Assembly: GCA_008632985.1 (NCBI GenBank)
Contig: QPGO01000059.1
Span: 62,001-126,000, forward strand
DNA from: Psammoneis japonica
Taxonomy: Eukaryota
Direction: 5' to 3'
DNA: 64,000 nucleotides
Part shown: piece after piece, positions 8,751 to 64,000 of the stretch
Layout: each line of letters starts with the position of its first letter
How positions within the stretch are numbered: the first letter of the stretch is position 1
Notes under the pieces: model-generated
The model's input: the letters and a program-made list of their open reading frames with translations, nothing else
Database searches by the model: none
Told to the model about the DNA's origin: nothing
Translations under genes and position numbers: made by a program

Positions 8751-8770
8751 ACTCGCTTAGACAATCACAT

Positions 8771-15429: not shown

Positions 15430-16230
15430 GTTTCTTGGCATGCCTCACACGGCTGTCAATGTTCAAGGGACAACCATTTGCTTCCTTGGCTTCTTTGACA
15501 AAATCACCAAGAACTTCAAGACTGAATGAAGGGACAAAAGGATGAGATGATTGTGAAGGTGAGAAAGAAACTGCTTTTGGAAACACAGGAAACAAGAACA
15601 TGTGTTCTTGACAACAGACTCAGCTCCAGCTGAGAGCCCAGCTCATTGTGTGAAAATTGACCATGGCTTCATTGTTGGCACAAAGATGAGTCACCACTCA
15701 AATGGGTGGACCTTCAAGCAAGCAGCACAGTTGCCTGAGTAAAATCATGCTTGGCACACTCATTGCAAACACCATGAAAATTGGTGGGGAGACCATCAGC
15801 AGCAGCAAGAGCCACAGCCACTCAGGATCCTGTCACCTGTCACAAGGGGCAGAGAAGGCTGTGCAGCTTAAAAGTTTTGTTCAATGGTGCACACATGCTG
15901 AGCCAAAGGAGTTGCACCTCTTGGAGAAGAATTTTGCATTGTGCTCAGTGCAATTGACAAGTCTTCTCCCAAGCACTCCTTGTTTTGACAAGACGGCATC
16001 CATTGGCAGCTTTCATGGAGCAGCCGCTGTTGTTGACCACCACCCAAATGTGCAAAGGAGAGAATGCATTTTTTTGTCATGGCACCTCTGAGTCCATGAG
16101 CAAACCCTTGATGTTGGAGTTTCTTGACCTCATTTTGGCCGACTGTGTTGGCAGGTGCAGGAACAACTTTGCTGGATCTAGCCAGAAGAATGTGACAATG
16201 TCATTTCCGGTTGAGTGATCCAGCTGTGAG
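15430..16230 (-). pseudogene. Mutated vWA-like paralogue (third copy) inside block A
   Basis: Remnants [46 protein letters not shown] and SLEVLGDFVKEAKE. Internal deletion and stops; intron remnant at about 15522-15620. Confidence 0.85.
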
Positions 16231-18660: not shown

Positions 18661-19632
18661 TGGACAATGTTTTGGCCTCCTCACACCACAGAAAACAAGC
18701 ACCAGTCATTGACTCTCACACCAACCGCAACAGTGTGCACTTTTTGTTTGCAAGCTCCTGTTTAAAAAAAATCCAAACTCCCAGTTTAAAAGCCACACAC
18801 CCAAATCTCTTGCTGCTTTTCAACAACTGTGGCTGACCTGGCAGTTGGGGCGATGATGGGTCGAATGGTTTTTGGCCTGCTGCCAAAAATTTTGTGCAGA
18901 GAGAGGCACTCCAGGATGACTTGCTGGAAGAACATTTTCTGCTGAGAGCCAGCTTTCTGCCAGCTTTGTTGAAATCAGAAATGCCACAAAAACACACTGT
19001 GGGCATTGCCGCGTGCAATGAAAGTTGTGCCTCTCCTGTGATGCTTTCTCCATGCATGCACATTGCACTCGCCTTTGTCTGTTGCCGTGGCTGCCAGCGG
19101 CAGCAGCACACTTGGGTCAGGCTGGCAGCAACAGCAGCAGATGGCAGCACAAAAAATGCAAAGAAATCTTCACACAGACAGACTGCCGCTGTGGCCACTC
19201 TTGCTGGAGGGTGGTGACTCCCAAAAATTCTGGCTCATCTCCAACCAGCCATTGAGCTGTTTCTCAACAAGAGTGCTGTTTTGGACAAAACACTCATTTT
19301 TAAAAACAGACAACTAAATGATGAAGCACAAAAAGCAAGAGTGCTTGTGTGTGCACAAATCAGAGGAAATCAAGGGGTGGCATGTTGAAAAATGGTGCTT
19401 GAAAAGAAATCTGTGCACCAGGGTTGGAATGCAGAGCTCTGCAGCAAGAAGAGAGGTCATTGGTGCTGGTCAAAATCCTTGTCCAACATGAGTGGAGAGT
19501 GCACCCCCCGCATTTGGGAGTGCCAAGGGTCTCAGCAAATGCAGACAATTTTGTGTTGCACAGAAATCTGCATGATGGGGAGCAAATGATGTGTTTTCAC
19601 ACTGAACAGCTTCTTGCACAACCTCCTCCAAC

Positions 19633-19652
19633 CTCTCTCTCTCTCTCTCTCT
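19633..19652. repeat. (CT)n microsatellite
   Basis: ctctctctctctctctctct. Confidence 0.85.
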
Positions 19653-20649
19653 CCCCAGCCAGATTTCAAGATTTTTTTGCAAATGTCAAGCCACTTGGAG
19701 CCACTTAAAAAACACTTGCTTTTGCCACAAGAGGGAAAATGGCAGCTGGGTTTCATTTTTCACATTGTTTGGATGAGAGTTTGATGTGTGACAAATTTTC
19801 TGCATTGACAAGGTCGTGCATTGGCCTCATTGCTTCTCCACTGCTTTGGCGCCCTTTGCTGCAGTCACGCAGGTTTCCCTCGCATCATCAACACACGACC
19901 AAAAACTGCAGTGCACCAAGAATTGGCTGTCAACTTGCAGCATGTTTGTTTCATGTGGCTGGAGGCAAGCCACCACAATCTGGTGTGTGAGTTTGAACAA
20001 GCTGGGTGCATGCAGAATTTTGAAATGGGCTGATTCAGTGAAGTTTGTTCTCATGAACAAATCATCTCTTTGCATGAATGAGCAACTGCCAAGGATGACT
20101 TTGCAGCAGCATTGACCAGGAGAGTTGTCCAATGTTGTTGATTCTCCAACTGGACAAGCAAGAAGGCTGCACTTTCCTGCTTGGGCTGGCACCACTTGAG
20201 AGTTGGATGTTGTTGCTGACAAGAGTTGATGATCCATTGCACACCCATGTGTCCTTCTTGCAAAGTGGATCGTTTTCCCACAGGCTCCAGTGGTCTCTGA
20301 AATCACCCATGAAAGCAATGTTTGGACATCCACAGGGCTTGTGTCTCGTGAAGTTTTTCCAAGTCCTTTTGCCACGCAATCATGGCGAAGAGGAACTGCT
20401 GGACAGCTCATGCATTCCGAGTGCTGGGAGTGATGCGGAAAGCGAAGACGCGCGTCCTTTTCGTTCAAAGCCCAACAGCATTTGGATTCGCACCGTCATC
20501 GCCGCTGATGCAATTTCTCAAATTTCCTTTCCAAACAACTAAATTGGCAGAGGGAAAGAAGCTGTGTCGCATTGTAGGAAATCGTGTCCGCGTGACAAAG
20601 GGTTTTTTCTTTCATGGTGAGGCTTGTTAATTTTATATGGTGTGTGGAA

Positions 20650-26477: not shown

Positions 26478-26953
26478 TCAGTACGGATATTTACCACATT
26501 TTGCACAGTTTCCACGGTATAGTTGCAGCCCAACCCCGCAATTCCGGCATATTTCGGGCTCTTTGCTATTGAGCAAAACCTTCTCGCCAGCCTTCACTTT
26601 GGAAGAAACGTTGTTCAGTCTTTCTTGGTCAAGCCCGCCAATTTCGCGCAGCAACTCTTCCGCTGCAGCAAGAGCTGTGGATTCATCCTTCATGACCTTC
26701 AAGGTTTGTCTTCGAGTATTGAGTCCAAGAGGCTTGACCACCGTCCCTGAACAGCAACCACCGAGACAATGTTCCTCCTTGATGGTCGTATCGGGATCCG
26801 CCAAGATCTGCAGTGCATCCAACAGCATTGTGCTTCCGTTGGAGCAACACGGACTGGATGTGCATACTCTACAACCCTTGCGGTGCCATGCCATGGCTGA
26901 AAACGACTGCGCCAAGCAGGAGAAGCAACCGACACGGGCTTGTAACCGTCATG
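26478..26953 (-). CDS. Thioredoxin-like [2Fe-2S] ferredoxin-type domain plus C-terminal zinc-ribbon protein
   Basis: CRVCTSSPCCSNGS...CLGGC and CRNCG...CAKCGKYPY. Confidence 0.6.
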
Positions 26954-44239: not shown

Positions 44240-47200
44240 AGCATGTGTGGCCGTGTCATTCGACCTGGTCGACCACAATTTCTTGAGTCAAACGCCAAAC
44301 AAACCAAACCGAAAAACCGAAAACCAAACAAAACAAACCCACTTGCCTGCCTCAACGCTCGAGAATGGTGGATGTCAACAAAACATGATGATCTCAAGTG
44401 GATGAATGATGCATGATTCTTCGTCGAATGTGTCGCATTGGAGACAAGTGCAAAACTGCAAGAAGATGGGGCTTGCCATGAGCAAAAAAGCTCAGCTCCT
44501 CAAACCAGGTTTCGGTGGCCCCACAACCTTCGTGGAAGAAACGATTGCCAAAAGGCAAATTTGACATTTCAAAACTGTTGAGTTGACAATTTGCGATTTT
44601 TGCAACTGTTTCCCAATCCACTTTTGCCAGCGCAGGGCAAGAACAAAATCAAGGCGAGCATCGCTGCCATGGCCACAAGAAGGCTGTTGCCTCCTCTTCT
44701 GTCAAATGCGCTGACACCTCCAAGCATTCTGAGACTTCCAAACCATCTCTTGAGAAAACTCTGCAGGACTTACATGCAGAGCTCATTCCACTGCACCCGC
44801 GGTGCCTGTTTCCGGAACATTGACAGGCTGTGCAGCTGCAATGCACAAAGAGGAGTCAGATGACATGGATATGGACAAACTGAGTGGAGCTGGTCTCATT
44901 CTCTGCCAGACTGCAGCTGCTCAATGCTCCCCACTGGATGCATTGCTTGAGTTGGAAAGTCAGCACTGCCCATGTTTGCATTGCCGGATTGCTTTTTTTG
45001 TCCTTCGCAAAGGGGCACCACCGCTGACAGACATGCAGCACAAGGAACTCACATGCTGCCATCTGCCAAGGAGATTGTGAGCAGTGCCTGTTGATCAAAC
45101 CTGTGCTGGTCAAAAATGTGAGTGAACGTGGCTCAACTTCAAAACTCTTGCCCTTCTGCTGCTGTGACTTTGCTTTCCCCAGCACATGATGGAGCACAGG
45201 AGGCATGTTGCTCATCCCCTTGTCCATGATCAAGTCATCTGCTTTGGATGCCGCCTGGCTAATCAAGTTTTGCTGGCAGGCTGCTTGAGAGCACTGCAAT
45301 GTTGTGTCAGCAAGAAATGAGAGCTCTCCCTCTTTGGGCTGGAGAAAATGAGTGGCTTCTTGATGTTTTTCAGAGCTGTGGCACACCTCAACCAACTCTT
45401 GGAACCGTGCAAGTTTTTGTGCACAACTTTCAAGCAGCACCAGCTCTTTGCTTTGTTCCACAGAGCTGTGGTGTGGTCAGTGCTGGAGGTGCAGTTTTTG
45501 TGGCTGTTGGCAAGGGGTTGCAAACTCTTTGTCATTTGAGCCAGAGCAGTGTGTTGGAAAGTGTGGCTGTTGTCAAAAGCAGTGCACTGTGCAGCAGGTT
45601 GCTGATCAATGCCATGAAGCTCTGCTGCAAAAACATGAAGAAACAGCAGCTGTCAAGAGATGCTGTGGTGGACTCTTGCTGATTGGCTCCACCAAGCTCC
45701 ACACTGCAAATCATGGAAAACTTGGTGGGTTGGGCCCTCAGGCCTTCAAGCATGACATGCCTTGCTCAAAAAGATGTGAAGGACAACCCCTCATCAGCTC
45801 ATTGATCTGCCCATGCACTGCATCACCAACTCTGTTTGTCCACTTCATTGTGAAATGGTGCTGCTGGCTGCAATGACAAAAAGCCACAGCTGAAGTTTGT
45901 CAGATGGTGAAATTGCCACATGTTTCAAAACCCATTTTTGCAATGTTCAACAATTTTGACTCCAATGCCAACAGGCAAAATCTGGCTTTTTTAAAAAACA
46001 GCACTGTTTTCCAAAACAGCTGGCTGTTTTTCCTCAGTTGCTTTGTGCCACTTCAACACACAAGTTTTGTGCACTTGTCAATGTTTGCACAGCAGCAAGC
46101 AAATGAGTCAACCAGACTTCCTCAATTTCCTCAGGTGTTGCTGTCAGGGATGTTGACTGCCAAGTGGGACAGCAACCAACAGTTTGACAACAGCTGTGTT
46201 CCTCCTCTTGAGGAGCTTCCTGTTGTTGTCAACTTGTGCTCAAAGCACTTCATCACAATTCAAGTTTCTGGGTGTTCTGTTTTGTTGTCTTTGCAATTTT
46301 TCAGGTGTGTTTTTTGCTCATTGGCCTCCCAGCCCACCAAATCATGGCACCCCATGAGCCCCTCTGGCAACCATCCTCCAGCTGCCCTTCTCCTTGGTTC
46401 CCGTCCACCATCTTGCATTTATCTCACCAGCAGCACCTGCCATGCGCAATGTCTCTGGATCTGCCACATCCAGGACAGTGATGTTTTTTAGCATGACTGT
46501 GGTCATTGCCATCTTCTTCTGTGGAGCAAGGCACTCAGCCAGTGTCTTCCCATGCAGGCACTTGCAGTTGTCATGAAGCTTGTTTTTTTACATGAGGGGT
46601 GCAGCATGGCTTTGTTCCTTTGTGATTTTTTTCCAACGGCAAGGCAAAAGCTTCAAAAAATGGGGCAGCGTGTTGCCGAGCCGGCCTGCACCTTCTTGTG
46701 TTTCCTTCCTGCTCTGAAGAAATTGTCACATTTTCTCCAATTTTTTGTTGGAGCCCACATGTTCTTGACCCTCCTTGTGTTTCTTCCTGTTGTCTGATGG
46801 CTTCACTGCATGGAGAAGCGTGCATGCAAAACTTGCAGGCCCATGTCACATGCAGCAGCCCCACCCCCTGGGGCTGGAACATGCCACCCAGCACACTTGG
46901 CAACAACAAAGCATCGGCACACATGTCGGATGCTGTTGCAGTTTAGAAAGAAACAACAGCAATGGCTTGCCTGGAGTTTCTCTGGTCCCCACACTCAGCA
47001 CTTTCCTGGGATCTTTCAGGTGCTTTGCAGCCCACTTTCCAACTGCCATGGCTCCAATTTTTCCCTTCCCATGCCTTCCAAGTGAACTCAGGGTCATTGT
47101 GCTCCACTGTGTCTGGGTGCTTCTTCGGCATTTTTTTGACAAAGGTGTTCATCACATGTTTTGTAAAAGCAGAGTTGTGTCACCCCCCATTGACAAGTGC

Positions 47201-50200
47201 TGACTCTTTGGCACAGTGTGGTGCTGTGTCTTTGTTTGGGCAGGCAGTGCTGAGAAAGTCTTGTGACAGAGTTCTCAATGACCAGCTTGATGCCACATGT
47301 TGCTGGTTTGTCCTTCCTTGCAATGGCCACAAATCTTTTTCTTCCTTGCACTGCTGTCATCTTCTTTGTCATCATCATTGCCACACAGTGTGGCACAAAC
47401 TTGCCCCCTTTTTGTTTTTTAGAGGAGTGTGTTGACCAAAACCCTGTTTTCTTGCAAGGGCATCAGTGCATCACATTGTTTTTTGGTTTCTTTGCAGTGG
47501 CTGTCCCAGTTGCAGCCACTGCTTTGCCCTGCCCTTTTGCTGACTGAGACTTGCCAGCAGCAGTGGGCAGAAGCAGTGGCTGCTCTTCTTTGGACAAAGC
47601 TGAAGTGCCACCATCACAGTGACTTGCAGAGTTGTCATCCCCCTCCTCCTCCTTGTCATCCCCCAGCTCCTCATTGTCTTCTTTCCTTGTCCTCTTTTTG
47701 GCTCCATTTCTTTTGCTTTCTGCAGTTCCTTTTTTCCTTCTCCTTCTCTTTCTTCTTCTTTGCTGCACTTTTTGCCACTGCTGCTGACTTGGCAGTCGGC
47801 AGCCAATCGCTTTCTTTTCTTTGAGCAGCCCCGGGGGTGGGTGGCGCACACAATGACGCCATCACAGGGTCACTCATCCTCTTTGACGATGCCTTGGGCT
47901 CTCACAAGAAGAAACTGCTGTCCTGATTTTGCAACAAGGATGATGTGAGACATGTCAAAAAGGAAGCAAAACCACCACACCAGTTGCCATGTTGCAAGGA
48001 AGGCTGGGGGGGTGTTGATGACCACATCTTTTGGGAAGCCCCAAAAGACAAAAAAACACAGAAGAGCCAACAAGATGATCAAAGATTCATGGCAGGTGCA
48101 CCTCACAGGTTGTGTTCTCACAATGAAGGATGCTGCTGCTGGGCACTTCAAAAAAGGAAGCACAACCACCAGATTCTTTGCCATGTTGCAGGGAAGACTG
48201 GGAGGGGCTGTTGATGACTGCATCTTTTGGGAAGCCTTTTAAAAGACAAGAAACACAGGACCAACAACAAGGTGGTCAAAGACTCAGAGCAGCTGCACCT
48301 CACGGTGCAATTGTTCCTTTGGCTTGTGAAGACAGCGTGGGTTCAGCAGGAGCATCCACATGCATCAAATTTATCACCCAACACTCTGTCTCATTTGGGT
48401 GACAAAGTCACAGTTTGCATCGCATGTTGATGTGAAGACAAAGCTGGATGGTGTGTCAAAGCAAGAGTGACTGGCATTTTTGTCAGTGCATGCTCCAATG
48501 TGAAACAAAGAGTGCCTGGTCAAACACAATGGCTCTGAGTCAGGCACAACAATCTGTGGCAACAGATGGCATGCAAGTGGCCACTGAGTGGTCCAAGAAA
48601 AAGAAGAACAAGGGTGGCTCCAGCAGCACATCCTCAAACAAGTCTGCAGCCCCTCTCTTCATGTGCTCCTCACAATGTTTCACCAATGGAGGACCTGCCA
48701 GACACACCTGCAGCCAGCTGTTGTTGGTGATGAGCCAGACAACATTGGCGTTGAAGAGGGAGAAGAACCAAACCAACAACGCAAGATTGTTCTGTTGGTG
48801 CCACTCCTTCAACCAACTGCTGTGGCTGTCTTGTCCTGGAGGAAATGGAGAAAAATTTCAATGTCACCATCAACTTCATAAAAAGGGACAGAGTTGCCAC
48901 TCCACAAAAACACATTGGAGGGAGCAAACACACTGCACATCATTGCATTCTCAACTTGAGTTTGTGTCTGTGCCAAAAATTGCACAGGACACCTCATCAC
49001 AAGGCACACAAAGACATGGCAGATGACATCATTTTGATTTGCAAGGCATTCTTGAACAACACAAGCATGGAGCACTGTGGCACAGCCAATGGCCACTTTG
49101 GTGAGTTCATCACCATGTTGCATGCTGGCAAGTGTCTGTGTTGTTGCTGATGCAGCTGAATCTGTGCACCAGCACAGCTTCCCATTCATCATTGTGCACA
49201 GGAACAGAAGAGTTCTCTGTGCCATCTTGATGGACATGCAAGATGTTCTTGATTTGTCTTGACATGGAAACAACTTGCAACTGAGTCAACTTGTCAACAG
49301 ATGCCACAGACAGAGGGGACAAAGTTGCAATCGGGATTCAGATGCCAAAGTTTCCAACACAGTGAGTCATTGCTGCTGGCATGCCATCAAGAATGTTGGT
49401 GCCACTGGACAGCAACAAAGTGACAAGGTTGCAGTTGGATGGGTGTTGCTTGGTGGCCATCCAGGCCGGTCTTGACAGGATTGGGGTCAACAAGCAAGTC
49501 ATTCCAGATGGACACAGAACAGCCAAGTGTGTTCAGTGCAAAGCTGGCAAATGAGCTGAGCCAGCCTGCAGACAGCATGGGGTTTGAGACAATGTCAATG
49601 ATGGCTGCATCAGCAGCACTGGATGCAAACAAGAGTGCAGGCAACCATTTGGACACTCAAAACTGCACAAACAAAGATGTGGGCTGTGTTGGCACATTGA
49701 ATGAAGTGGTTCATGAAGCAGATGGCTGAGCCACAAGAAACAGCTGCACGGGTGCATGAAAAAGGCATGCAGTCATCTGCTCATGGAGAGAATGGGTGGT
49801 TGCAGAAATGCTGCCAATGGCAAGTTGAGAAGCTCATGTCAGTGGGGCCAGGTGCAAAGAGCTCGGCAGTCTTGAGGAAGGCACAAGTGAGTCAGCTGTG
49901 GCACTGGACAGGAAATTGAATTCCACACCAGAGTTGCACTTTTCAAAAAATCTGGCAACTGGGCTGGGCACATCAGCTTGATTGGAAAGGAGTGCAGCTG
50001 GCAGGAGATGGTGACAAGGAAAGCACAGGAAGGGAGCCACTGGGCATTGCACACACTGAACCCTTCTGCAAAGCTGAGAGTGGCAGCTCAGAGGTGGGAG
50101 AGTCAGGGCATGCCACATTGACAGAACACAACCTCCTGGTGCATGACTTCCATTGGCTGTGCTGCAATCATGCCAGAGAGGAAGCAAGAGTCAGGGAGTG

Positions 50201-51915
50201 TTGCATGGGTGGTCCAAGACCAGAACAACAATCTCTTGTTGTTGATTGGTGCAGTGCTGAAATTGGCTCAAGAGTCACAACACAGCAGCTGTGCTGACAT
50301 GCTGAAGTGTGGCTGCAAAAATCTCAGAGATGTGCCAGCACAGGGTTCTTTCCCAATGGCTGCAGTGAGCAGCCTGACCTCAGAGGATTGCAAGTGATGC
50401 ATGCAGCTCACACCAAAATTGTGGAAAAATCATGGTGCATCTTGGTGGCTTGCAAGAGTGGGGTGCCAACACCAACAACAGGCAGCAAAGCCTCTTGATG
50501 AAAGCTCTGTTGCACAAATTTAGGATTGCAGCAGCAATGGCCAAGAGCGGGCTTTGCAAGATGCGTGGAAAGTGTCATCCTCCTGCAGAGCTGTGCTTCA
50601 AAGGAGATGTGTTGTGCAACATCATGTGGATCAATGAAGAGTGCAAAGCTGCAAGAGAGATGTGCAGATGAGACAATGAGCAAATCACAATGGCATGGAA
50701 CAGTGATGTGATGCTTTGGAAACATCTGGTTCACAATGTCATTTTTCCAACAAAGCACGCAATCAGGCAGAGCATCCAGTGCAAAAACATGCATTGTTTA
50801 CATCATCAAAACAGAACTCACTGAAAGCTCTAAAAATGCCTGTGTTTTTCACAGACTCAGCTGTGTTTGTGTCAAAAATTTTGTCATCTTTGATGGCTTC
50901 AAACCACGGCTCTGAAATGCATTTGATTGCTGCACACAAATGAGAAAGCTGGCAAAGTCATTGAACAATGAACAAGTCAGATTCCCAAACAAAATCACTT
51001 CGCAATTGCATGCAGACATGTTTAAAATGTGGCAGTGCCACAGCAAAACGCTCTGTCACATCCAACTAATTTTTTCAAAGTGCCATGGGACCTTTCAGAA
51101 GATTGTGGCAAATCAGGGTTGGGTGACATTCCTCAATGAGTCTGGCAAGGGTCACATTTGCTCTGGAGCAGCCACAGCTGGTGCAACCTTTTTTTTTCTG
51201 TGGTGTGTTGATGACTGCCACCACTGGAGAAATGAACCCAGTGCCCAAGAAGCTGAGTTTGATGGCTGTTTGGGTCAGATCAGCTCTCTTTCAAATCTCC
51301 AAGTTGCAAGTCTTTGTGCATGATCTTTTCAAAAAGTGCTCACCAAGTGCAAGAGGTTGGATCTTCCAAATTGTGTTGGCACTGGCAGTCTCAGCAGCAA
51401 TGTGTCAGCCGTGGATGGCAACAAGGCACTGGTGGTCTGCACATGTTTTCTGTGAGAGAATGCCTCCATTGCAGCCATGTTTGTGTTTCAACACAATGGT
51501 GATGGGGAAGCATGTTGCAGCACCTTGGATGTGGATGCAGACTCATGATGTGGTGTGTTCCTCAAGGCCCTCAAACAAAATGTCCAAACTCAAGAAAAAA
51601 CTTGAATCTACCCTGGAGCTTTTTTGGTGCCAACGTGGTGAACCAACTCCGTGGCTGCATGGAGGATGTCAAGGGTTGGACTGGCAGCTCTGGTGATGAA
51701 GAAAAAATGACATGTGTGGGAAGAAGACAAAGACTTTGCGAGGTGTGAATGCGCTGCGGTCGAAGCAATTTCCAAGGGAAATTTGGAGCATGGTGGTTGC
51801 AAGGAAGGGGGGGAAAGCAGCTGACTAAACAATGCACGGGTGGACATCAGTGAAGAGGACAAGGACCGCATGGGGCATTTCATCCGTGTGCCGTGCGTTG
51901 TGCAAACTGCATGCA
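44240..51915. other. CpG/TpA-depleted block C (about 7.7 kb of decayed, unidentified repeat/TE sequence)
   Basis: Same signature; no protein family could be recognised by eye. Confidence 0.88.
47955..48310 (+). repeat. Diverged tandem direct repeat, period about 190 bp, 2 copies
   Basis: aaaaggaagca.aaccacca...gccatgttgca.ggaag.ctggg...tgttgatgac..catcttttgggaagcc at about 47958 and 48152. Confidence 0.8.
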
Positions 51916-53023: not shown

Positions 53024-53299
53024 GGTGATCTCAGTTATGGGAAAGCACGTCGTGTTCCTGAATGATGGAGACAACAAAAGTGAATGTGTCATAACATGCT
53101 GATCCAGAGCGGGAGAATATCGTTCTGGAGATCGCAGATATCCTGCAGATAAGCGACCGCGCATTGCAGCGCGCACACAGTTGTAGTGTGCTCGATGCCA
53201 GTGATGGATGATTCGTCACACCGCCACGTTTTGTCCGATGGCAACGGTTGTGGAGTGATGGAGAAAGCGTGTCTGAGAAAGTGAAGCTCTCATAGCGTT

Positions 53300-55905
53300 G
53301 TGCAGATGACACTAAAGAGACTGAGTGCTGTCCTGCTGGCTGTTCTTGAGAGAGATCTCACAGATTGAAGAGATTTTTTTGCTCGTGTCCCGCCGCTCAC
53401 ATGTTGACCTTGCAGATTGGGAGTTGTTTGGCAATTTTGAAAAGGCATCCCACTGAAGAACAAGTTTTGACCAAGGCTGTTGAGCCCAAGAAGTTGGAGC
53501 CTGGAGAGCACATGGTGGTGTGTCCCTTCCTTTCTTGGCACCTTGTGTTCTGTTTTGTTCAAAAGTGTGAGGCACAAAAAAGTGGAGTGCTGTCTGTGCA
53601 GCAAGTGACTCATCACATGGTTGAAGGGACTTTCACAGCTTTGAAGTCAGGGAGCACGGAACAAGCATCATGCCCTTGAAGGTGACATGCAGGAGGGGGG
53701 AGGGGCACAGTGTTTTTTTTCTCTCCACTTTTGCTCCCCTCTCCCACTCTGTTGTTGATTTGTGTGCATTTGCTTTGTGCTCTTGCAACAAAAAGATCCA
53801 AGCAGACAGAGCTCTTGATCTTCTCATGGTTTCACCATGGAGGGGAAAAGTGAGCAGGGCCTGAGCAGCTTTGGGCTTGACATGTTCAGGCGTCACATTT
53901 GACATGTGGCCAGTGCGGCGCACAGGGAAGAGGCAGGAGCAACAATGCGCTGCTGATGGGTGGGCAGTGTCTCCTCTGGATCCTCTCACAAATCAGTTGA
54001 TTGCAGAGTGATTGCATTTTTGTCAAGTTCTTCTTTGGCTCTGTTGATGGCAGGCATGCGGCTTGTGGGTTTGGGGGGGAGCTGGGGCTCCCCAGTTTAT
54101 TTTGTCTGGCGAGATGGGTTGTGAGCCACTGGGACGCACCAAGTGCTGCGTCCCGCACCACGCAGCACGGACCACGACGAGCGCATGGTGCACAGTGCAG
54201 CACACACAGTGCACGCAAGCGAACCGCCATGGCAGATGCCATCCATGTCAAGAAGATGCCATTGAACGAATGTGCCATGGAGGATGATGCGCCTGCTGCA
54301 GATGAGTCTTTTCTCTCCTGAGGAACTTGTTCAATGAGAATCAAACAAGAGTTCTCAGACAAGATCACACTCTCTCTCCTTCTTGCATGCAACAAAAGGC
54401 CAGTCCAGGTGCCCAGCTAGAGCAGACTGCAGTTTAATGTGTGCAACAGATCGCATGATGATGGTTTAACCCACACACTGCGGGTGCAGTCCCTCCAGGT
54501 TTAACAGGCAGTGTGATGACGTGTTCCAAAAACTGGGCCCCCGCTTTTTTTGTCGGGGGGATTCCCCTTTTTATGCGAAGTGCTCCCCCCTAAACCCACA
54601 AGCCCACAGGCATGCTGCAGACACCGGCAGATGCACATCTGCCGCTGTCCCAAATTTTTGACAAAAATGCAAGAAAAAGAACAAGAAGAAACTTCAGCAA
54701 AAAAGCAAAAACAGGGAAAAAACAAACAAAACACTTGCCACCAACTCTCACAAAAAATGGCCAATGGCCAACAGACATCACACACTGCAACGCTGTTCTG
54801 AATCAACATTCTGAGCACTCCATTTTCTCACACAGGTGTGCCAAATGCCATGAGCATCTGCGAGGAAGAACAAACATCTTGCAGAGGAGCTCAAGATTTT
54901 GTGAAGAGAGGGCAAATCACAGCAATGAAGATGTTGAGGCCAGAGAAGTCATTGAGAACATGACGCTGCTTGCAAGTGCCTGCACCTTCTGAGGGAGAGC
55001 TGTGCACACATTTTTTTTATGTGTGCTGGGGGATCTCACCAATGTTCCACACCATTTGGCCAGCTGGGCAGCAGAGTCAGGTGAGGTTGGCCAGAGGATC
55101 TTGTCAAAACAGATGGCACACAACATTGGGTGGCATGGCACCCAACTGTTGTCCTCTTTTGACTGGTGCACACAAAGTTGAATGGCTGATGGGCGGCTTG
55201 TGTGAGGGAGTGTGTTGGAACACAAGGTGTGCAAGAAACGTTGGTCTTGTCCTCACTTTTGCTTTGGCTTCTGCGCCAGGATGCAACAACATGTGGCAGT
55301 GTGGGGTGCATTTGGAATGTGGCTGCAGTCCAAGTGGTGAGCTTTGGAGAGTGGTGGTGAGACCAACACAGATTTTTCCCCAAGAAGTTGGAACCTGGAG
55401 CATGTGGCATTGCTCTGATCTTGCCTCTCTTCCGCTGAGCATTCTTCCTGCAGCTGTTGCTCAAGCACATGTCAGTGGAACCTGGTCAGCAGTGCAGCAA
55501 GCACCTCATGTGGTTGAAAAGATTGGTGCTTGCCATTCAGTGCTGTGCTGGGATTTGAAGTCAAGGAGCACAACAAACCATGACTTTGGAGTTGACGTCA
55601 GCATGTTTTCCTGCACACACTTTCTTCTTGGCATGTTCTCATCCCTGCTGTTGTTGACTTGCTTGCGTTTGCATTGTGCACTTGCAACAACAAAGATCTC
55701 AGCAGATGGCCCCCTTGATTTTCTGATGGCTTTGTCATGGAGGGGAAGAGTGAAGGGGATCTGAGGCCCCCTTGCCCCCACCCATTGTGCCACCAGCACA
55801 CTGCTTCTTGTTTGGCACACAGCAGCATGGCATGCAGATGAGCGATGTTTCTGGTCACCAGGAACCTCCTCTGGATCCACTCACAATGCAGTTAATTGCA
55901 GAGTA
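53300..55905. other. CpG/TpA-depleted block D containing two diverged copies of one segment (about 53400-53870 and 55310-55770)
   Basis: Shared cccaagaagttgga.cctggag, ttgaagtca.ggagcac, cttgcaacaa.aaagatc and catggagggg.a.agtga in the same order. Confidence 0.82.
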
Positions 55906-56209
55906 ATTTCAACTTTTGAAAATTCTTTTTAGCCCACCGGTGGCAGACGTGCTCTCTGCCAGATAGAGGGAGAGGGCCCATTCACTGCCTGCCTGAAGGA
56001 AATCCGTGGCGACGACTCCTTGCGACAAAATCGCGACAAAAGCTACAAGCAATGGCTGCAGCATCGTAAAGTTAAAATGCTCAAGAGTGACCAAAGCACT
56101 TCTACCCTCCGCACTCAATTTGATCAGCAGCAGCAGTATAGCATGTACTGAGTTGTCCCCACCAAAGTGTTGCGAATTTACTACTTTGTTTATTAATAAA
56201 GTAGTAGGG

Positions 56210-57222
56210 TCACCCCTCCAGGTTTTGTGCTCCCACGATTTGTCCTCCCAAATGAACGACCATTTTGCCAATCACTCGTGAGAAACCCCCGGTGCTGAGC
56301 ATAAATCTCGACGCGTGTGCCATGAAATAAAAGTCTTGATCGGGGTGATTTCCTTCGATTTGCAGTTGCACCTGGTATCCAGCCTCGGCGATTCCTCGGG
56401 AGAGACAATGCGCATAGAGTTTACTCTGTTGCCACTCCTCTGCTTCATGAGAGCCCCCCACGAACTGGATAGTGTCGATACTCTTGCCGGAATCCGTGAT
56501 GTTTTCAAGCATGTCAATGTAGTCGTTGACACTAAAGATAGTCTTGACCTTTATGTAATCCGGATGGTGGGTGCGGCCTCCGTTGAGTAGCAAGTAGGTA
56601 GCATCGGCATTTGTCCTACTCTCATTTGCACTACTCTCATTGAGGAGTTGCGAGGCATGTTCAATGACATCCCCGAGTCGCAGATGCACAATGAAATCCC
56701 TGGGTCCAGGCTTTTCGAAACCCGGTCGCTTCTCTTCTTCGATGAGTTGAAAGATTTGCTCCACAACGTCCATATTTTCTTTGCCATCTGGTTCAATACA
56801 TTTACTCATGGCCCCGTACATACCAGCAATAGTATCAAAATACGTCAGATTGGGCAAATAGTCAGCATTCTCACCCAATAGTGTATTGTTGCAGGTGGAG
56901 CAAAATCTGATACAGTCGCCCAAACGATATTTATTCCCCATAATGCTCTTGCCCTTGAATAGCGCGTCATGGGGCCCCCGTAACGTTCCTCGACGGGGAA
57001 CGCCAGCAAAGGGTTTATACAGATTCGTGTCATTTTTCACATCTGTAACACATTGCTCGAGCCACTCTGGGGTTGGTCGAGAAGGCATCTTGATCGGGGT
57101 GGGGGAGTTGTTGTTGATATTGTTGTTGTCGTCGTCGTCATTGTTGTTGTCCGCGCAGCATAGACCCACACAACAAACACAAAGAGACAACAAATGGCAA
57201 CAATTCTTACAAAAACGTTCAT
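56210..57222 (-). CDS. Type II membrane glycosyltransferase-like (GT11/fucosyltransferase-type motifs) protein
   Basis: IVHLRLGDV and PDQDFYFMAHASRFMLSTGGFS; N-terminal hydrophobic segment. Confidence 0.6.
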
Positions 57223-57717
57223 GGTGCTGCTCTTTGTGACCTTATGCCGAAAGTTACAGGTGCATTAATTTTAGCGTACCGTACCGCCGTCTGTGCAGGA
57301 ACTGACGGAGGATGAGCTTTTTTTTTCTGGATTTTGTCAACCGTGTCTCGGGATTCCAAAATATGAACAGTTAAAAAGAAGTTGGCGCCCCCATGAGAAG
57401 TTTTAGAAGAGGAGACGAAGGGGAAAAGGAGGGAAGAAAGGAGCTTCACTAATGCGGTGCAACTCTGTTATGAGCAAGCACCCACGTTTGGCATAGGATG
57501 TTGATGATCAATACAGTATTTGAAATTTCTTATCGTTAGGTCTGCACTGCACCGGCAGGCAGTCTCACGCCCCGCACTGTAATGCACAGTAGAACCGCGC
57601 GTAGAAAAATGTCAGGCTACAGAAAATTTGCTGAGGGGGAGAACGCCGAATCAGATTTTTTCCTTGTTTCGCACGAGATTTGCAACGCAGCGACCATGAC
57701 ATAACCCGTCACGTAAG

Positions 57718-59850
57718 ATGGGCGTCGGAGGCCTGTGGCTCAAGGCGCTTTGTCCCATCAACACTCAACCCTCTGTTCCCTTCAGAGTGATGCCCGAGGG
57801 AAGAGACTTGGGGTCGATGTTTCAGTTTCGCTGCACAAAAACTGTCATGAGAATGTCGCGGTGCAGTGTTTGATGCTGGATCCACCACATCCACCGAAGA
57901 TCTCATTGACAGCTCTTCGTCAACACACAAGAAGCTTGTGTCCACTGGCATCACTCCAGTCCATGCATTTGAGGATGGGTGTCATCATCCGATGAAGAGT
58001 GTGAGGCCCGAGAGGCGCAAGACAGAGAACCATCCAGAAAGCCAACGGAGGATGGAGGAGTTCTTTTGCAAAGCCTGAAATGGCACTCTAATGCCTGATT
58101 CAGATCATGGCAAGGTGGCAAAGCATGTCTGAGCTCTCTGCAATCCAAGTGCAGACATGATCAGTGGCGTGGATGAAGTGCGACAATGTGGAGTGTGAAT
58201 GCGCCCCGTTTGAGGCAGAACATCAGCTCATGAAAATGGAGGCAGAGGGTTGGATTGATGCTGTCATGACAGCAGAGAATGGTGACACAGTGTTCCTCAG
58301 TGCAAAAGTTGTTCATTTCAAGGTTGACTTCAATGCTTGCAAGAGTGGAAGTTGCACACCAGCCAAAGCAACAATCTTCCTGACGGGCATCAAATGGGCG
58401 AGCATTCATTCAAGCACTGGGCAGTGATGGCCAAACTCCTTGGAATGGACTGCAACAAAAACATGTGCAACATTGCATTTGCAAAGGTTTTTCACCACAT
58501 TTTGTCACAGCTCTCAGTTTGGTCTGGTGCAAATGCTGTGCAAACAAACTGCACACAACAAGCACCCAAGAGCTCGCACCCGGGAAGGGTGCATGATCGC
58601 CTTTGACAAAGCTGTTGCACCATTCAAACATTGCCCTGTGCTTGATGCAGATTCCAATTTTGCACCATTGACTCCTTTGCCTGCATCTGTTGACATGAGT
58701 TCATGGGGCAATCTTGTTGGGTTTGATCCTCTCAAAGTTTTGCCACACAGTCAATCATTGACTGCAATGTTGCTTGATGATTTGAAGGTCCAACATTTCT
58801 GAATGGTGCCCCACTGAAGGCTTTGCCAACTCCAACTTGCACTGCAGGTGAGAACTGGGAAGCTTTTGGAAAAGAGCTGCCTTGATGTGCACACTTGAAT
58901 TTTGGGGGACTGCTCCTGCAGAACATGCCCTGATGGATGTGTGCTGAAGTGTGTTGGACTGCAGCGCAGCTTGGCCCAATCCCTGTGGATCAGTCTAAAG
59001 TGGTGGGGAAAATGTTGGAGTTCATTTTGCAAAATGAATTGATTTTGGAACTTGAGAAGGTTCCAGTTGAAATTGGCTTGTGGATGACACATGAGGTGTT
59101 GGAGCCTGCTGGCTGCACGACAGGTTGGGGTCACAGCTGCTGCTTTGATCGCAAAACCCAGCTTGGATGGAGCAATGTGGATTTGGTTGCAAGATTTTAT
59201 CCCAAAGGAAATGAGCATGGCCTTGTGTGTGGAGTCTTGCTGTTGGAAGGTGGCAGCTTGCTTGTAGATTCCATCCACTTTCAAATGTGTTGGGCTCTTG
59301 CGGATGGCAGCACGGTTTGGGTTTTCAGGCTTCACTGCATTCCATTGATGAAGACAGATGTTGCATCATCAAACACCTCAGAGGCAAAGCCAAAGAAGAT
59401 GTGCAGGAAGGACAATGGTTCATGTTGGTTTTGTTGCTTTGTCCAAGGAGTTTTTGCTGCTTCTGTTTTCCTGCTGCACGGTTGCTGCAATGACAGTGGT
59501 GTGTGCTGTTGTGTTCTTGCAACTCTGTGTGTGTTTTGACAGTCACAGAGGTGCATGGACCAAGGCATGTTTGAGAGAGCAATGCCGCCCTCTCCTGTCA
59601 ATCACACACCATTTTTGATCAAACAGATTGCATTTGCAGAGACTTCTTGGTGCTGCACTGCTTTTTCCACTGGAACAGAGAAGCAAACAGCAATGCTTTG
59701 TGCACAAAAGAGTTGCAACAATTGCAGATGCCTTGCTGCATCACACTGCTTTGTCTGCTCTAAAAGCAAGCAGCAATGCCACACAAGAATGAGCTGCTGT
59801 TGCAGAGACTTCAACAATTTGTCCACTGGAAGCAAACACAAAATTTGAAG
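57718..59850 (+). pseudogene. Decayed EXO1/XPG(Rad2)-family 5' nuclease fused to a C-terminal SWIM-like zinc finger
   Basis: MGVGGLW..L.P; RGKRLGVDVSV.LHK; GITPVHAFEDG..HPMK....ERRK; APFEAEHQL...GWIDAVMT..GD..FL..KVV.FK; H3TH-like LLGMDC...NIAFAK; FDKAVAPFKH.PV; then CIP.MK...GC.N.SG.C..VLATL. Confidence 0.8.
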
Positions 59851-60011
59851 GCACATTCAAAGACATTTCATGGCATCATGATGCTTGTTGCAACAGCAGC
59901 AAACAGCAATGCTTGGCACAAAAAGAGAAACATGACAAAGTCAATCATGAATGAGACACACAGTGCCAGTTTTAAATTGGACACTCCAGCAGTCACACAG
60001 AAAACCCCTGT

Positions 60012-62551
60012 TTATTCCTGGCTTTGCAGTGGCCGACCAATGTTCATCTCGGCGTGTCCCCATTCCAGCATGTGTGGTGGCATCAGGCACAAATTTTTGC
60101 ATGGTGCTCCATCCCAAAGGCCAGCCATTGCCACCAGACAAGCAAAAGCAGTTTCCACAGGATGCCATGCTCAACAAAGATCATGCTTGTCAGAGAGCTC
60201 CAGCTCATGACACTGTTTGACTTCTTGCTCTTGCAACAACCGTGGCACCCAAAAGCTCCAGTGAAGCAAGGAAACAAACATCTGTTTTCTCAAACCCCTT
60301 GTCTCCAAGACCTTTGTTTGGCAGCATCTTGTGCTGGCACAGAAAGACACCCGTTAGAGCCTCGGCATCATTGTCCAAAACATGACCTTCTGGCATCAAC
60401 TCGCTGCCAAGCCAGCATGACAAATCTCACTGGAACTCTTTTGTCATTTCCAAGCATGCACTCAGGATGCACCTTTTGATTGTTTTTTGGTTGCACAACT
60501 TGTGCAGTCTCTCAAACAGTTCAAGTTGCTGCAGCAATTCCTTTGAAGAGCTGTGGGGCAACAAATGAAGCACCTTCTCACTCATGGCCTTCATTCAGCT
60601 GCAGCTCTTGCTCAGCATTGGTGCAACCTTGTCCAAGCTGGCTTTGCACAGCTTTTCATCCATCACGCAAACAACTTTCAGCCACTCACTGAACCACTTG
60701 TCAATGTGATCCGCAATGTGTTGACAATTTTTGGGTTGAGATTGTCCACAGCCAAGGAGGCTGCTGCTCCTTTTTGTCAAGTCCAAATTGCAGTCAGAGT
60801 CACTGAGGCCATTCCAGTCACTCTCAGCACTGCTGCCACCACCACTCTTGAGCTCAAAATCAAAATCCCAAAACTCCACAACTCTGGAACTGGCCCATCT
60901 GTTGTTGGTGTCATGACCCTTCTCCTGAGCCTCGTGGGGATCTGTTGCCACCACTGCTTCCTCCAGCTCCTTCCCTGCCACCAAGCAATCCCACGTCATC
61001 CAGCACCTGAGCTCTTTTTGAACTTTGTTTTCTTTGGCATGTCTTTCCACTCATGAATGGGAGCTTTCTCCTTTTGGCATGAACCAGTTGTCTCCACAAG
61101 ACATTTTTCATCAACTCGAGCCCCATGTGCCCTTTGTGTGCTCACACGACAACTCGCACAGCAACACAAAATTCACAAACCAAAATGCAGAGCAGCTCAT
61201 CTCACTCTGCTGTTTTGTTTGCAACATGCTGCACCACCCTTCTGCATGGTGTCTGTTGGTGTGTCCTTGCCATCCAGCAGTGCAGCAGTTTTGTCAAAAC
61301 TCTGTCAACAAATTCATCTGGCATCCCTTGTCAAAACAGTTGGGAGGCATCGGCAAGATGGAAAGAAACTTGCCACACTTCTCACCCCAACCTGGGGCCC
61401 ATTTGTTCAGATGCTTCAATGCTGCAGTCGTCACCACCCCAAAAAACCATCCCGTCATCTTTTGGACTGGACAGTGGGCCCAAAGTGTTCCACAATTGGT
61501 GCCTGTTCAAATGCAGTTGGATTTGGCAGGGCACACACAAGCTTCTTCTTTTTGGCAACAAATTTGATTGTTGGAACATGCTCAGGCACATTGGCAAAGA
61601 ATGCAGATGTGTGCCACTTTGCCTTGTTAAGAGACTGGAATCCAAACAAGTCCTTGGCTGCTCCAGGGTTGTTGGTGTGCCATTCTTCTGACATCAACTG
61701 GTGCCAACATGCTGAGTTGCTGTCAAGAAATTCTGTCAAGGAATCTTCCACCTCATCAGCAACAAACAAAGGTTCAGGAGGAGAAGGAGGGTTGTCAGCT
61801 TTGCACTTCCTGTGGCTTGTTGCTGCCCTCTTGCTTTCCTGCAGGTGCTTGACCTTGGCCTTTGCTTCTTTCAATGCTCCTTTCTGGGCAATGATGCACT
61901 CAGCAACAATGGAGGCAGCTCTTCAATTGTGAAAGCTGCAAGGCTGTGTGCTTCTTCAAAGCCTGCTGACAATGACCCAGCTTTGCAAATGCCATTCGCT
62001 CATCACACACTTCCTTGCAGGAATTGTGTGATGACTTTGATGTCTCTGCAAACAGCAGGGGTTCTTTTGACATGTTGGGGCAATGAAAGCAGTTTTTCTT
62101 TCCTTTCTTTGCAATGCCGAACCATGTCAAAGGTGTCAGCAAGTGTCTTCATTTCTGTTGCAGGGAGAGGGGCATGAATGTTTTCTTGCCCTTGTCAAAA
62201 AACTCTCCAACTGTCCAGCCATCCAATGGCATCTCATGACTGGCACCGATTCAATGCTGGCAACCAAATCTCCAGATGTGCCAAGGTTCAACAGTGCAGC
62301 ACCTCTCCATTTTGACTGCTTCGCTGAGTCACCTGAAAGCTGTTGTCACTTGCACCTGCCAGCATGAGTTTGCACTGTCAGGCAATGGCACCAAGAGCAC
62401 AAAGGTGTTTCTGAACCTCACGGCATGCATCACCCCAGCTGCAAATGCTGGTGTCATTTTCACCCCACCTCCTTGGATCATCTTTCAATGAAGACAGTGG
62501 CACCAGCTCCATGCTGTGAGAGGCACAATCAGGTTGACACGTGTTTTGCAT
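60012..62551 (-). mobile_element. Decayed DDE transposase of PIF/Harbinger-ISL2EU type (DDE_Tnp_4-like)
   Basis: HTH-like TAFEQ...FGV....KWAP.WG; LLDGKDTPTDT (D1, about 61250-61280); LGDKGFEKTD (D2, about 60280-60310); ARHPVETAF (E, about 60145-60172); C-terminal NIGRPL. Possible THAP-like N-terminus CQPDC. The 5' end is tentative. Confidence 0.75.
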
Positions 62552-62984
62552 GTGGTGTTGTGTTTCATCATGACTGTGAGTTGATTGTTGTGCAAAGTGA
62601 AAGCAAAAATCAGTGTCTCTTCCAAGCTCCACCATCAAATTTTTTGGAGTGTGATGCATGTCTGGTGCACCATGAGGCTGCTCCTTGTGGGAAGACCTCT
62701 TGTGCATCAAAGCAAGAACCAACCATCTTTTGTGCTGAGAAATGTGCAGTGGATGACGCGCGGCACACATGTGGCTGCTCCACTGTTTGAAACTGTTGAA
62801 GTGGTTCTTGTTTTGCCAGCCACATTTGCTCCCTTTGTCCATCAGAGCCAATGCCAAGACACCCTCCAACCATGTGTGAGAAGTGGAGCATGTGCACAAA
62901 AATGATGCTGGCACAATTTTTTGCACACCCCGCCAGCAAAACATGGCATTGTTTTCACCCCATCATCTCAAAAACGCATGTTGA

Positions 62985-63870
62985 AAGTTCAACTTCAACA
63001 AGCAGTGATCTCACCTCCATCATTTTGTGAAAAAAACGTCAAACAATTTGATGGATGGACATGTTTCAATGACCACATCTCCATCACAAACCCCATCATT
63101 CAAACAAACCCTCAGTGCCTTGCCCCCTTTTCATTTGCACTTTCTGTTTTGCAGCAGCTTCCAACTCTTTTTGCTGTTCATGAAAAAAGTTCTCACAAGA
63201 TTGTTCCCAGGAAAAAAAATTGCTGAGTCGAACGGGCCAACTCTCACCTTCTGAGAATTGAGTCTTGAGTCTCTTTTGAGCAGATTAATTTTTGGTGGGT
63301 GCCCCAAGCAACATTTTTCCCACCAAGGTTGCTCAGAGAATTGTTTGATGATCATGGTTAAAATGATGGTCTTCACAAAATTTCAGTTGGAGATTTTCCC
63401 ATCTGATGATGACAATGGATGGTGACACCATCTCCTCATGAAAGCTGTTGGCCATTGAGTCTTGTGACTTTGTCAGTCCATGATGCAGGACACTTGGATG
63501 TGTGGACCAACGAAGCTTCAATTTCCAACTGCAGACAGCCACAAAGCAGACAGCATTGCCATTTTTAGCTTGGAAGCTGTCACAAAATGGGCAGCAAGAT
63601 GAATTTGTTTTGCTCATTGTCCTTGTGGGAAAATGCAATCTGAGCAGAATGACCAACTCTGCGCTGAAGGACTGAGCACAAATTTCTGGAGAAAACAAAA
63701 AGGCAGAGCCAAATTCCTTGCACATGAAAAGGGGGTGAGGTGCTGAGAGGGTTTGTTCAGATGATGACAGGTTTTGCAGTGGAGACACAATCATTGAAAC
63801 ATGTCCATCTGCCAAATCATTGGACAGTTTTTTCCCACAAAATGGAGGTGATCACTGCTTGTGTCAAATG
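62985..63870. repeat. Diverged inverted repeat: arms about 62985-63140 and 63720-63870
   Basis: caagcagtgatc..acctccat...gatggacatgtttcaatga...aacaaaccctc...cccccttttcat matches the reverse complement of the second arm. Confidence 0.8.
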
Positions 63871-64000
63871 GCCTTCATGTTGACAAAAGATGACATCTCA
63901 CAATGTCATGAGACAACATTTTGGGGGGCACCCCCACCACTTTTTTGTTTGCAGCTCCTGCAAAGGTGCAGGAATGGCCCCACAATGTCCCAGCCTTTTC

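Follow-up and report, generated by a model that had tools for sequence, protein, structure and literature searches.

The described systems closest to the locus reported here are DNA transposons of the PHIS kind (IS5/PIF-Harbinger/ISL2EU), for which the available text of a survey of 836 genomes names Myb/SANT proteins and YqaJ as the only accessory partners. YqaJ is the accessory nuclease of ISL2EU elements (PMC4482050; PMC9179366), and the role of this exonuclease is called unknown in the accessible part of one account (PMC4482050). ISL2EU elements typically insert at AT (PMC4122938); they are described with an extended target A/AT/T and with repeats of 6-259 bp that usually start with GG, and are reported from animals only (PMC4482050), whereas the targets listed for other PHIS groups are TWA, ANT, CWG or TNA. 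Nucleases accompany transposases of other superfamilies as well, since AcademX encodes one and generates 3-4-bp duplications (PMC10045372), KolobokE carries a lambda-exonuclease-like nuclease and KolobokP a His-Me endonuclease (PMC9587614, in the portions available). Here we describe a segment of the Psammoneis japonica genome that departs from these arrangements. It lies in a 64,000-nucleotide stretch of contig QPGO01000059.1 (assembly GCA_008632985.1, positions 62,001 to 126,000, forward strand), hereafter the window, whose numbering is used unless a metagenome locus is named. We put at roughly four in five the probability that a cut-and-paste DNA transposon of the PHIS kind, with two genes and now dead, occupies its segment at about 57584-62671; the partner of its transposase is an EXO1-like nuclease of the Rad2/XPG family.

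A first-pass annotation of the window had proposed that the two genes are one mobile unit, and this is borne out by intact relatives, in which both lie convergently between long terminal inverted repeats (TIRs) in two independent metagenome insertions. Six loci (L001-L006) were recovered when metagenome contigs were scanned with the transposase alignment; L001 and L004 represent one insertion (100% identical) and L002 and L003 another. The two insertions are 90-94% identical inside the element and unrelated outside it; their similarity ends at the repeats, so that the insertion flanks differ. In three of the six loci (L001, L002 and L003), tblastx matched the nuclease region of the window directly downstream of the transposase and on the opposite strand; L004 stops short of the nuclease position, and the contigs of L005 and L006 are no longer than 2.1 kb. 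Both genes are open in L003, the transposase at 4713-7532 (+; 939 aa) and the nuclease at 7537-9594 (-; 685 aa), with 4 bp between them. Inverted repeats were located at 9174-9463 and 13526-13816 in L001 and at 4353-4704 and 9617-9967 in L003, and the TIRs of the intact elements measure ~385-430 bp, reaching both start codons. All four ends of the two insertions begin ATGAG(C/G)GCTGAG. AT is thus present at each of the four, and the extended flanking A...T at neither insertion.

The convergent placement of both genes between inverted repeats in the intact relatives shows that the nuclease belongs to the mobile unit. This layout recurs although the proteins most similar to the window copy (P0002 and its relatives; 26-58% identity over tblastn segments) share only 25-29% identity (tblastn and alignment) with transposases of the L001-L003 type. 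The two-gene element is mobile, having two insertion sites among the metagenome contigs and being multi-copy in the Psammoneis japonica genome. The window alone has no plain-sequence repeat joining both genes, as would befit a decayed host EXO1 paralogue that happens to lie beside an unrelated transposase relic. Such chance adjacency is rendered highly improbable by the recurrence of the same pair in the same orientation inside inverted repeats at two independent sites, with transposases so far diverged from P0002 and its relatives, by the single mutational block and multi-copy depth shared by both halves of the window element, and by a transition-tolerant repeat that brackets both genes.

The proposal that the partner gene is an EXO1-like Rad2/XPG nuclease is supported by domain matches, catalytic residues, fold comparison and a conserved C-terminal motif. 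Word-indexed searches gathered 16 and then 17 members of the nuclease family, 367-697 aa in length. Some come from protein sets that carry the labels Skeletonema marinoi and Cyclotella meneghiniana, and one is a complete transcript of a marine transcriptome collection. The family grew by a single protein in a profile search with 13 nucleases, and no relative turned up when viral contigs were scanned with the nuclease profile. Pfam XPG_N and XPG_I were matched in all 13 full-length family members, with P0038 above the cut-off for both, as is the 685-aa L003 protein (36.6 and 39.3 bits, respectively), and Pfam YqaJ had no match in the second open reading frame (ORF) of intact relatives. Seven family carboxylates (D34, D86, E173, D175, D194, D196 and D254), each either invariant or conserved at 90% or more, align with the active site of human EXO1, where we take their equivalents to be D30, D78, E150, D152, D171, D173 and D225. 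In a Foldseek search with the AlphaFold model of the nuclease (mean pLDDT 77.8), the best 15 matches listed all belong to human EXO1 (E 1e-15, TM to target 0.74-0.80), with FEN1 (E 7e-11, TM at most 0.64) and Rad2/XPG (1e-9) behind. In sequence comparison, EXO1 leads Rad2 only narrowly (5e-18 against 3e-17), and assignment to the EXO1 subfamily in particular is tentative.

Near the C-terminus of the nuclease is a motif of the form CxCx6CxH, in which C608, C617 and H619 are invariant across the family alignment and C610 is at least 90% conserved. Its sequence, CSCKKGxxFCSH, lies on strands in the model and is followed by a helix (618-632). Judged by this pattern, the motif appears to be a SWIM-like knuckle. 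Pfam SWIM (PF04434) reached E<=0.1 in three of the 13 members (best 0.016), and the P0038 match of 13.4 bits lies below the 19.6 cut-off; the L003 protein likewise gives a sub-threshold 13.4 bits. A separate observation concerns L001, in which 318 bp from the 3' end of the transposase gene occur as an exact direct duplication (11849-12166 and 12324-12641). The duplication occupies the place of the C-terminal 1.1 kb of the nuclease gene (L003 7589-8707) and leaves a 296-aa nuclease without the knuckle domain.

In the window, the nuclease is a relic that is legible mainly in its catalytic core. Pfam was applied to 22 stop-to-stop ORFs and six read-through frames (X at stops); on the plus strand, XPG_I was matched in one of the former (58161-58427, E 7.6e-5, 23.5 bits against a cut-off of 24.9) and in one of the latter. 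A family profile built from 13 intact transposon-borne nucleases matched 57759-58325 over profile positions 14-203 with an independent E-value (i-E) of 3e-12, with further matches at 57890-58042 (i-E 2.1e-4) and, weakly, at 58617-58751 (i-E 0.35), and tblastn matches of eight of the 16 family nucleases span 57774-58337. Family motifs can be read over three frames from the ATG at 57718: MGVGGLW (57718), GKRLGVDVS (57798), FEDG (57944-57979), APFEAE (58197), ENGD (58257), LLGMDC (58436) and FDKAVAPFKHCPVLD (58602). By this motif reading, five of the active-site acids are as expected, one is Glu for Asp and one is Asn. The reading frame has at least five frame changes in addition to in-frame stops. 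An ungapped scan for the block that follows the helix-hairpin-helix region placed it best at 58596-58655, a score equalled at two of 35,134 control positions. A stray tblastn match of the nuclease family at 26735-26881 (E 0.009) was disregarded.

The first-pass annotation had read a SWIM-like finger in this relic as well as an XPG nuclease; the nuclease stands on the family profile, and the finger in the window proved marginal and in part a product of mutation. A scan that allows for CG and TA ancestry gives a score of 44.2 at the candidate remnant, reached at one of 34,822 control positions, which over 1,568 target positions corresponds to ~0.045. The raw translation at the same place gives no signal, 26 controls being equally good. 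A second Cys/His string at 59626-59670 may be what was originally read as the finger.

Opposite the nuclease relic lies that of the transposase. An exhaustive phmmer comparison, for which the read-through frame 59941-61506(-) served as query, gave 28 proteins at E<=1e-3 (best E-values 1.1e-29, 1.4e-28 and 2.4e-22), one of which is an unrelated obscurin. The tblastn matches of seven homologues run colinearly from 62414 down to 60024 and account for residues 16-833 of ~865. Along the way the frame shifts about four times and is broken by 15 in-frame stops, every one TGA and none TAA or TAG; the same search found no second copy of the transposase within the 64-kb window. At the catalytic Glu block, the window reads stop-AWHPVET where relatives have RYxVE, so that the Arg became a stop and the Tyr a His. 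No frame is open for more than ~200 codons between 57.6 and 62.9 kb. Pfam recognized no family in three read-through minus-strand frames, and a 155-aa piece of the window transposase had no match in a word-indexed protein search because the decayed sequence shares too few exact words with its relatives. The tail-to-tail arrangement, coordinates and equal mutation of the two genes, as first annotated, agree with the colinear homologue matches and with the dinucleotide ratios of the nuclease and transposase halves (CpG observed/expected (o/e) 0.16-0.17 and TpA o/e 0.02-0.04 in both).

The transposase family retains most of the PHIS catalytic signature. Invariant in all nine aligned proteins are D430, K453, E484, D742, P761, R787 and E791, spaced D430-22-K453-30-E484 and then D742-18-P761-25-R787-3-E791, the third conserved acid being Glu, not Asp. 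Compared with the signature D(19-29)K(29)D(18-40)D(11-19)P(18-28)R(3)E given in the available text of PMC4122938, the core fits five of the six spacings. The exception is the interval between E484 and D742, which holds a variable acidic stretch and a conserved helical block (QLExHERLH; more fully, SPQxxPxExLxQLExHERLH is conserved inside this insert). Among the weak Pfam matches, the sole transposase-related families are HTH_Tnp_4 and DDE_Tnp_4, both named in advance: HTH_Tnp_4 (PF13613) in three of ten relatives (E 0.018-0.075) and in the L003 protein (E 0.0019, 18.2 bits against a cut-off of 27), and DDE_Tnp_4 (PF13359) in two of ten relatives (E ~0.08, best 13.0 bits against 24.8). In the ESM Atlas, where 30 named neighbours were returned, all four displayed rows carry DDE_Tnp_4 and the ten best neighbours belong to the same family or clan; the top score of 0.94 (208 of 256 features in common) is a lead and not an alignment. 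The L003-type transposase is ~940 aa long and combines a DDE core, interrupted by a long acidic insert, with a helix-turn-helix, a coiled coil and, at its N-terminus, a CxCxWxxC...HH motif. Aligned N-termini (P0002, P0003, P0006, P0016, P0030 and L003; alignment A1 columns 58-240) share a conserved CxCxWxxC ... VAxHHF ... YFxxPNxP, which resembles a THAP-type C2CH finger in its residue pattern, though Pfam does not recognize it as one. As to the original description of the transposase as DDE_Tnp_4-like, the signature residues, both Pfam families and the ESM Atlas neighbours favor it, and every Pfam match is sub-threshold.

Kojima reportedly described in 2020 an AcademX nuclease of XPG type that is fused to the transposase. 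An Academ-type origin would therefore account for a transposon-borne nuclease, which AcademX is known to encode (PMC10045372, available text). It can hardly apply here, since the nuclease and transposase are separate, convergent genes, since the weak Pfam matches and displayed ESM Atlas neighbours are DDE_Tnp_4/HTH_Tnp_4, and since AT flanks are seen here as against the 3-4-bp duplications of AcademX (PMC10045372).

Several observations weigh against reading the window segment as a PHIS-type transposon with a nuclease gene, and they concern both genes as well as the ends. For the transposase, about 257 residues separate E484 from D742, compared with 18-40 in the PHIS signature. No transposase protein reaches a Pfam gathering score, whether among the relatives, in the L003 protein or in the window frames; NCBIfam returned unrelated weak matches only for nine transposases, and the transposase profile gave coiled-coil noise only against PDB sequences. 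The AlphaFold model of the transposase is poor (mean pLDDT 53, catalytic part <50), and Foldseek found no match to it at E<=0.001. For the nuclease, the 16 intact proteins match only the catalytic core of the window copy, with no match beyond 58.75 kb, and word-indexed and profile searches yielded no nuclease closer to the window's own lineage. Because the intact nucleases, which are of the L003 lineage, match the core only, the assignment of 58.8-59.85 kb and of the SWIM remnant rests on position and a marginal score. The complete transcript and the Skeletonema and Cyclotella proteins could also be explained by domestication as a host gene in some species. Finally, the AT at the insertion ends may equally be the first two bases of the repeat, AT being palindromic.

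Within the PHIS transposons, the position of the element is less clear than its general kind. It could be that it belongs to PHIS but not to ISL2EU, either as a separate unnamed group or as a branch of PIF/Harbinger in which a nuclease replaced Myb/SANT, a possibility that we regard as serious while placing it somewhat below even odds. Its original designation as ISL2EU-like is unsupported as regards ISL2EU proper: THAP is unmatched in all 11 transposases scanned (at E<=10 or E<=0.1), a YqaJ gene is lacking, and the repeats start with GA after the AT and are long, compared with GG and 6-259 bp in the accessible description of ISL2EU (PMC4482050). In addition, the extended A/AT/T target is found at neither of the two insertions, and the available text reports ISL2EU from animals only, which the hosts here are not. 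On the other side, AT at all four ends fits ISL2EU, unlike the TWA, ANT, CWG and TNA listed for other groups; an accessory nuclease instead of Myb is the ISL2EU pattern; and the commonest domain set among the ESM Atlas neighbours (23 of 30) is DDE_Tnp_4 + HTH_Tnp_4 + THAP, the architecture given for ISL2EU transposases in the available sections of PMC4122938. Placement in ISL2EU is therefore unproven. One premise of the earlier comparison also found no support, namely that ISL2EU YqaJ proteins often carry a SWIM finger, as the term SWIM occurs zero times in the accessible text of PMC4482050 and PMC9179366; the proposed retention of SWIM is accordingly conjectural.

The ends of the window copy were located by two approaches that concur. 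Contigs of a public sequencing run (X1, library type unrecorded), which may be the assembly's own source, were compared with the window; at a single-copy summed depth of ~54.5, summed contig depth passes the single-copy level within the bin 57335-57601 and drops to 49.5 in the bin 62675-62941. A transition-tolerant inverted alignment of both element ends begins at 57577 and 62690. Together these place the element at approximately 57584-62671, tentatively with AT on each side, and correct the earlier span of 57600-62900; the mutated block itself runs on to the window end. The 157 alignment columns of the two arms comprise 78 identities, 44 transitions, 30 transversions and five gap columns, and the alignment score of 88 compares with 41.7 +/- 6.2 for shuffled sequences (highest 66, n=300). 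Coded as purines and pyrimidines, the arms score 46 against 26.3 +/- 4.0, and none of 200 shuffles equals this. Plain-nucleotide searches found no terminal repeats in the window element, and an ungapped purine/pyrimidine scan over wide end regions did no better than chance (20, shuffles 19-26), so that the window arms are detectable only by gapped, end-focused alignments. The 190 run X1 contigs that are 85-100% alike to the window element show that it is multi-copy in the genome. The features of the window copy are collected in Table 1.

Table 1. Features of the decayed element and its surroundings, in window coordinates
Feature	Position	Strand	Remarks
Whole decayed transposon	57584..62671	n/a	~5.09 kb; ends accurate to ~10 bp
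Left terminal inverted repeat arm	57577..57728	+	un-hypermutated, CG and TA retained
Right terminal inverted repeat arm	62534..62690	-	hypermutated
Candidate 2-bp target site duplication AT, left	57582..57583	n/a	tentative; like AT at 4/4 ends of intact relatives
Candidate target site duplication AT, right	62672..62673	n/a	tentative; flank sequence
Rad2/XPG (EXO1-like) accessory nuclease pseudogene	57718..59850	+	3' limit as in the first-pass annotation; length and position match the 685-aa L003 nuclease
XPG_N to XPG_I catalytic core	57718..58325	+	three frames; family HMM, Pfam XPG_I, tblastn
Block following the helix-hairpin-helix region (FDKAVAPFKHCPVLD), also present in EXO1 and the transposon nucleases	58596..58751	+	weak support
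Candidate SWIM-like knuckle remnant (marginal)	59465..59548	+	scan allowing CG/TA ancestry
PHIS-type transposase pseudogene (~865 aa)	60024..62414	-	colinear with P0002/P0003 residues 16-833
Catalytic Glu block (RYxVE in relatives)	60144..60164	-	aligns with invariant R787/E791; window reads stop-AWHPVET
Second catalytic Asp block (LGDKGFE)	60289..60309	-	aligns with invariant D742/K743/F745
First catalytic Asp block (LLDGKD)	61263..61280	-	aligns with invariant D430/G431/D433
Helix-turn-helix region (WHTNNPGAAKDLFGF ... NPTAFEQ)	61491..61688	-	aligns with HTH_Tnp_4-matching region of relatives
TpA/CpG -> TpG/CpA block	57715..64000	n/a	starts ~130 bp inside element, passes right end

The decay of the window copy follows an unusual pattern. 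Six TpA/CpG-poor blocks (13458-16208, 19087-20418, 44814-51752, 53297-54059, 54592-55930 and 57715-64000) total 19.4 kb, or 30% of the window, and have CpG o/e 0.13, TpA o/e 0.03, TpG 1.77 and CpA 1.88, with base composition unaltered. The consequences for the transposase relic are visible codon by codon: at Tyr positions of three homologues (60 aligned pairs), the window shows 17 His and 15 Cys but not a single Tyr, Arg in homologues most often corresponds to Gln (21), Lys (19), Cys (12) or Trp (11), and all 15 stops in the transposase frame are TGA. Decay of Tyr to His or Cys and of Arg to Cys, Gln or Trp accounts for the spurious Cys/His richness of the relic, whose Cys content is 5.9% compared with 1.5%. 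Other genome copies differ from the window by 201 transitions and 64 transversions, with TG and CA occurring at the same site, and some retain CG or TA at sites that read CA or TG in the window, the reverse also being seen; the copies therefore mutated independently after insertion. A base-calling artefact is an unlikely source of the TpA/CpG loss, since run X1 contigs of single-copy depth (~55-62) match the window with 3-5 differences per 450-1140 bases, although this run may itself have supplied the assembly.

Overall, this looks like a repeat-directed transition process at CG and TA, the reverse of fungal repeat-induced point mutation (RIP), and no description of a joint loss of CpG and TpA in repeats was found among the literature matches listed. 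Such a loss could reveal a hitherto unrecognized DNA modification or defence in this organism. At the left border of the block, TpA ends sharply after 57714, ~130 bp inside the element, and CpGs remain dense to ~58050. These differing borders suggest two processes, or protection near the promoter of the neighbouring host gene. The window copy was inactivated after insertion, with at least nine frame changes, many TGA stops, and the conversion of nearly every CpG and TpA to TpG or CpA.

The surroundings of the element include one intact gene candidate and further repeats. An intact 343-codon frame at 56210-57241(-), with normal dinucleotides, starts ~340 bp left of the element end, so that the transposon lies in its upstream region. 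Immediately to the right of the element, the interval 62675-62941 has single-copy depth (49.5) yet is TpA-free like the surrounding repeats, and it may be an old, unique repeat fragment. Farther right is an inverted repeat of ~145 bp (62998-63139 and 63719-63862), 75.5% identical and TA-free, with a summed contig depth of 284-682 and with contigs that link its arms on opposite strands; the interval 62998-63862 is probably a separate foldback or miniature inverted-repeat transposable element (MITE)-like repeat. Elsewhere, the window contains one N, at position 24055.

EXO1 acts both as a 5'-3' exonuclease and as a 5'-flap endonuclease, and these activities offer a possible role for the element's second gene. 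The transposase would bind the repeats, cut, and join at an AT target, giving a 2-bp duplication. Conceivably, the nuclease assists transposition by processing 5' ends or 5' flaps, whether on the excised element or at a gapped donor or target site. A comparable function has been suggested for YqaJ, the unrelated exonuclease of ISL2EU elements in animals. Through its zinc knuckle, the nuclease could be tethered to DNA or to the transposase; a complex prediction for transposase residues 200-939 with nuclease residues 430-685 spoke neither for nor against this (score 0.00). We infer a role of the nuclease in transposition, possibly through 5' end resection during excision or gap repair. To our knowledge, how IS5/Harbinger/ISL2EU-type transposases handle the second strand and the gap is not known. 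The pairing of one transposase type with unrelated nucleases argues that nuclease activity itself, whatever its fold, is what the element needs. Were the nuclease an obligatory cofactor, then, together with the YqaJ of ISL2EU and the nucleases of KolobokE and AcademX, 5' end processing would be a recurrent, independently acquired need of DDE transposons. Non-orthologous displacement of YqaJ by an EXO1-like nuclease, which the first-pass annotation proposed, is likewise a hypothesis.

An accessory nuclease in a DDE transposon is a known theme, to which the EXO1-like version with a SWIM-like knuckle and a PHIS-type transposase would add a further form. The available parts of the literature, Repbase lying outside the search, yielded no PHIS-type element whose separate second gene encodes an EXO1-like nuclease with such a knuckle. 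Many protist transposon families enter Repbase without a paper, and this one might already be catalogued, for example in Repbase Reports as ISL2EU, Harbinger or under another name, in which event the family would not be new. We consider this less likely than not, as full-text searches of the literature found neither an ISL2EU-XPG nor an XPG-SWIM-transposase pairing (a co-mention of Harbinger and XPG is unrelated), as what is available on ISL2EU in diatoms shows nothing on the family, and as the survey of 836 genomes, in its accessible text, names Myb/SANT and YqaJ partners only. A more ambitious proposal is put forward tentatively, with slightly more doubt than confidence: that the window copy belongs to an undescribed, ancient PHIS lineage of marine protists whose transposition strictly requires an EXO1-like 5' nuclease bearing a SWIM knuckle, and that its decay records a perhaps new CpG/TpA defence mirroring RIP. 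The intact L003 element, with both genes and its long repeats, provides a direct experimental handle. For annotation, the family implies that protist genes labelled "exonuclease 1" may be transposon genes.

Comparison with known systems brings out both the familiar and the distinctive parts of the element. KolobokE and KolobokP are likewise DDE transposons with an acquired accessory nuclease, and they differ in transposase superfamily and in nuclease folds. AcademX is also a eukaryotic DNA transposon with a recruited nuclease (reportedly of XPG type), but it has a transposase of another superfamily, to which the nuclease is said to be fused, and 3-4 bp duplications. The catalytic domain of human EXO1 (PDB 3qe9, 5v04 and others) is the best match to the transposon nuclease in sequence (E 5e-18) and in fold (TM 0.74-0.80), with all seven carboxylates conserved; at ~19-20% identity, however, the transposon protein departs from EXO1 in its C-terminal half, a conserved extension of ~350 aa that ends in CxCx6CxH, and its gene resides inside a transposon. 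PIF/Harbinger elements share the transposase superfamily and the possession of two genes, one of them for an accessory protein, but theirs is a Myb/SANT partner with a 3-bp TWA duplication, whereas here a nuclease partner is combined with AT flanks. ISL2EU is similarly a two-gene cut-and-paste element of ~5 kb, with a DDE transposase that has a helix-turn-helix, an N-terminal zinc-binding motif and the PHIS signature, with a nuclease of 5'-3' polarity rather than Myb as its second gene, and with AT at both ends. In ISL2EU, that nuclease is a YqaJ/lambda-type exonuclease, whereas here it is a Rad2/XPG (EXO1-like) enzyme with a SWIM-like knuckle. Here, too, the transposase has no Pfam THAP match and its DDE core is divided by an insert of ~257 residues, the repeats are ~385-430 bp long and start with GA, and the labelled relatives are diatoms, in contrast to the animals-only distribution given for ISL2EU.

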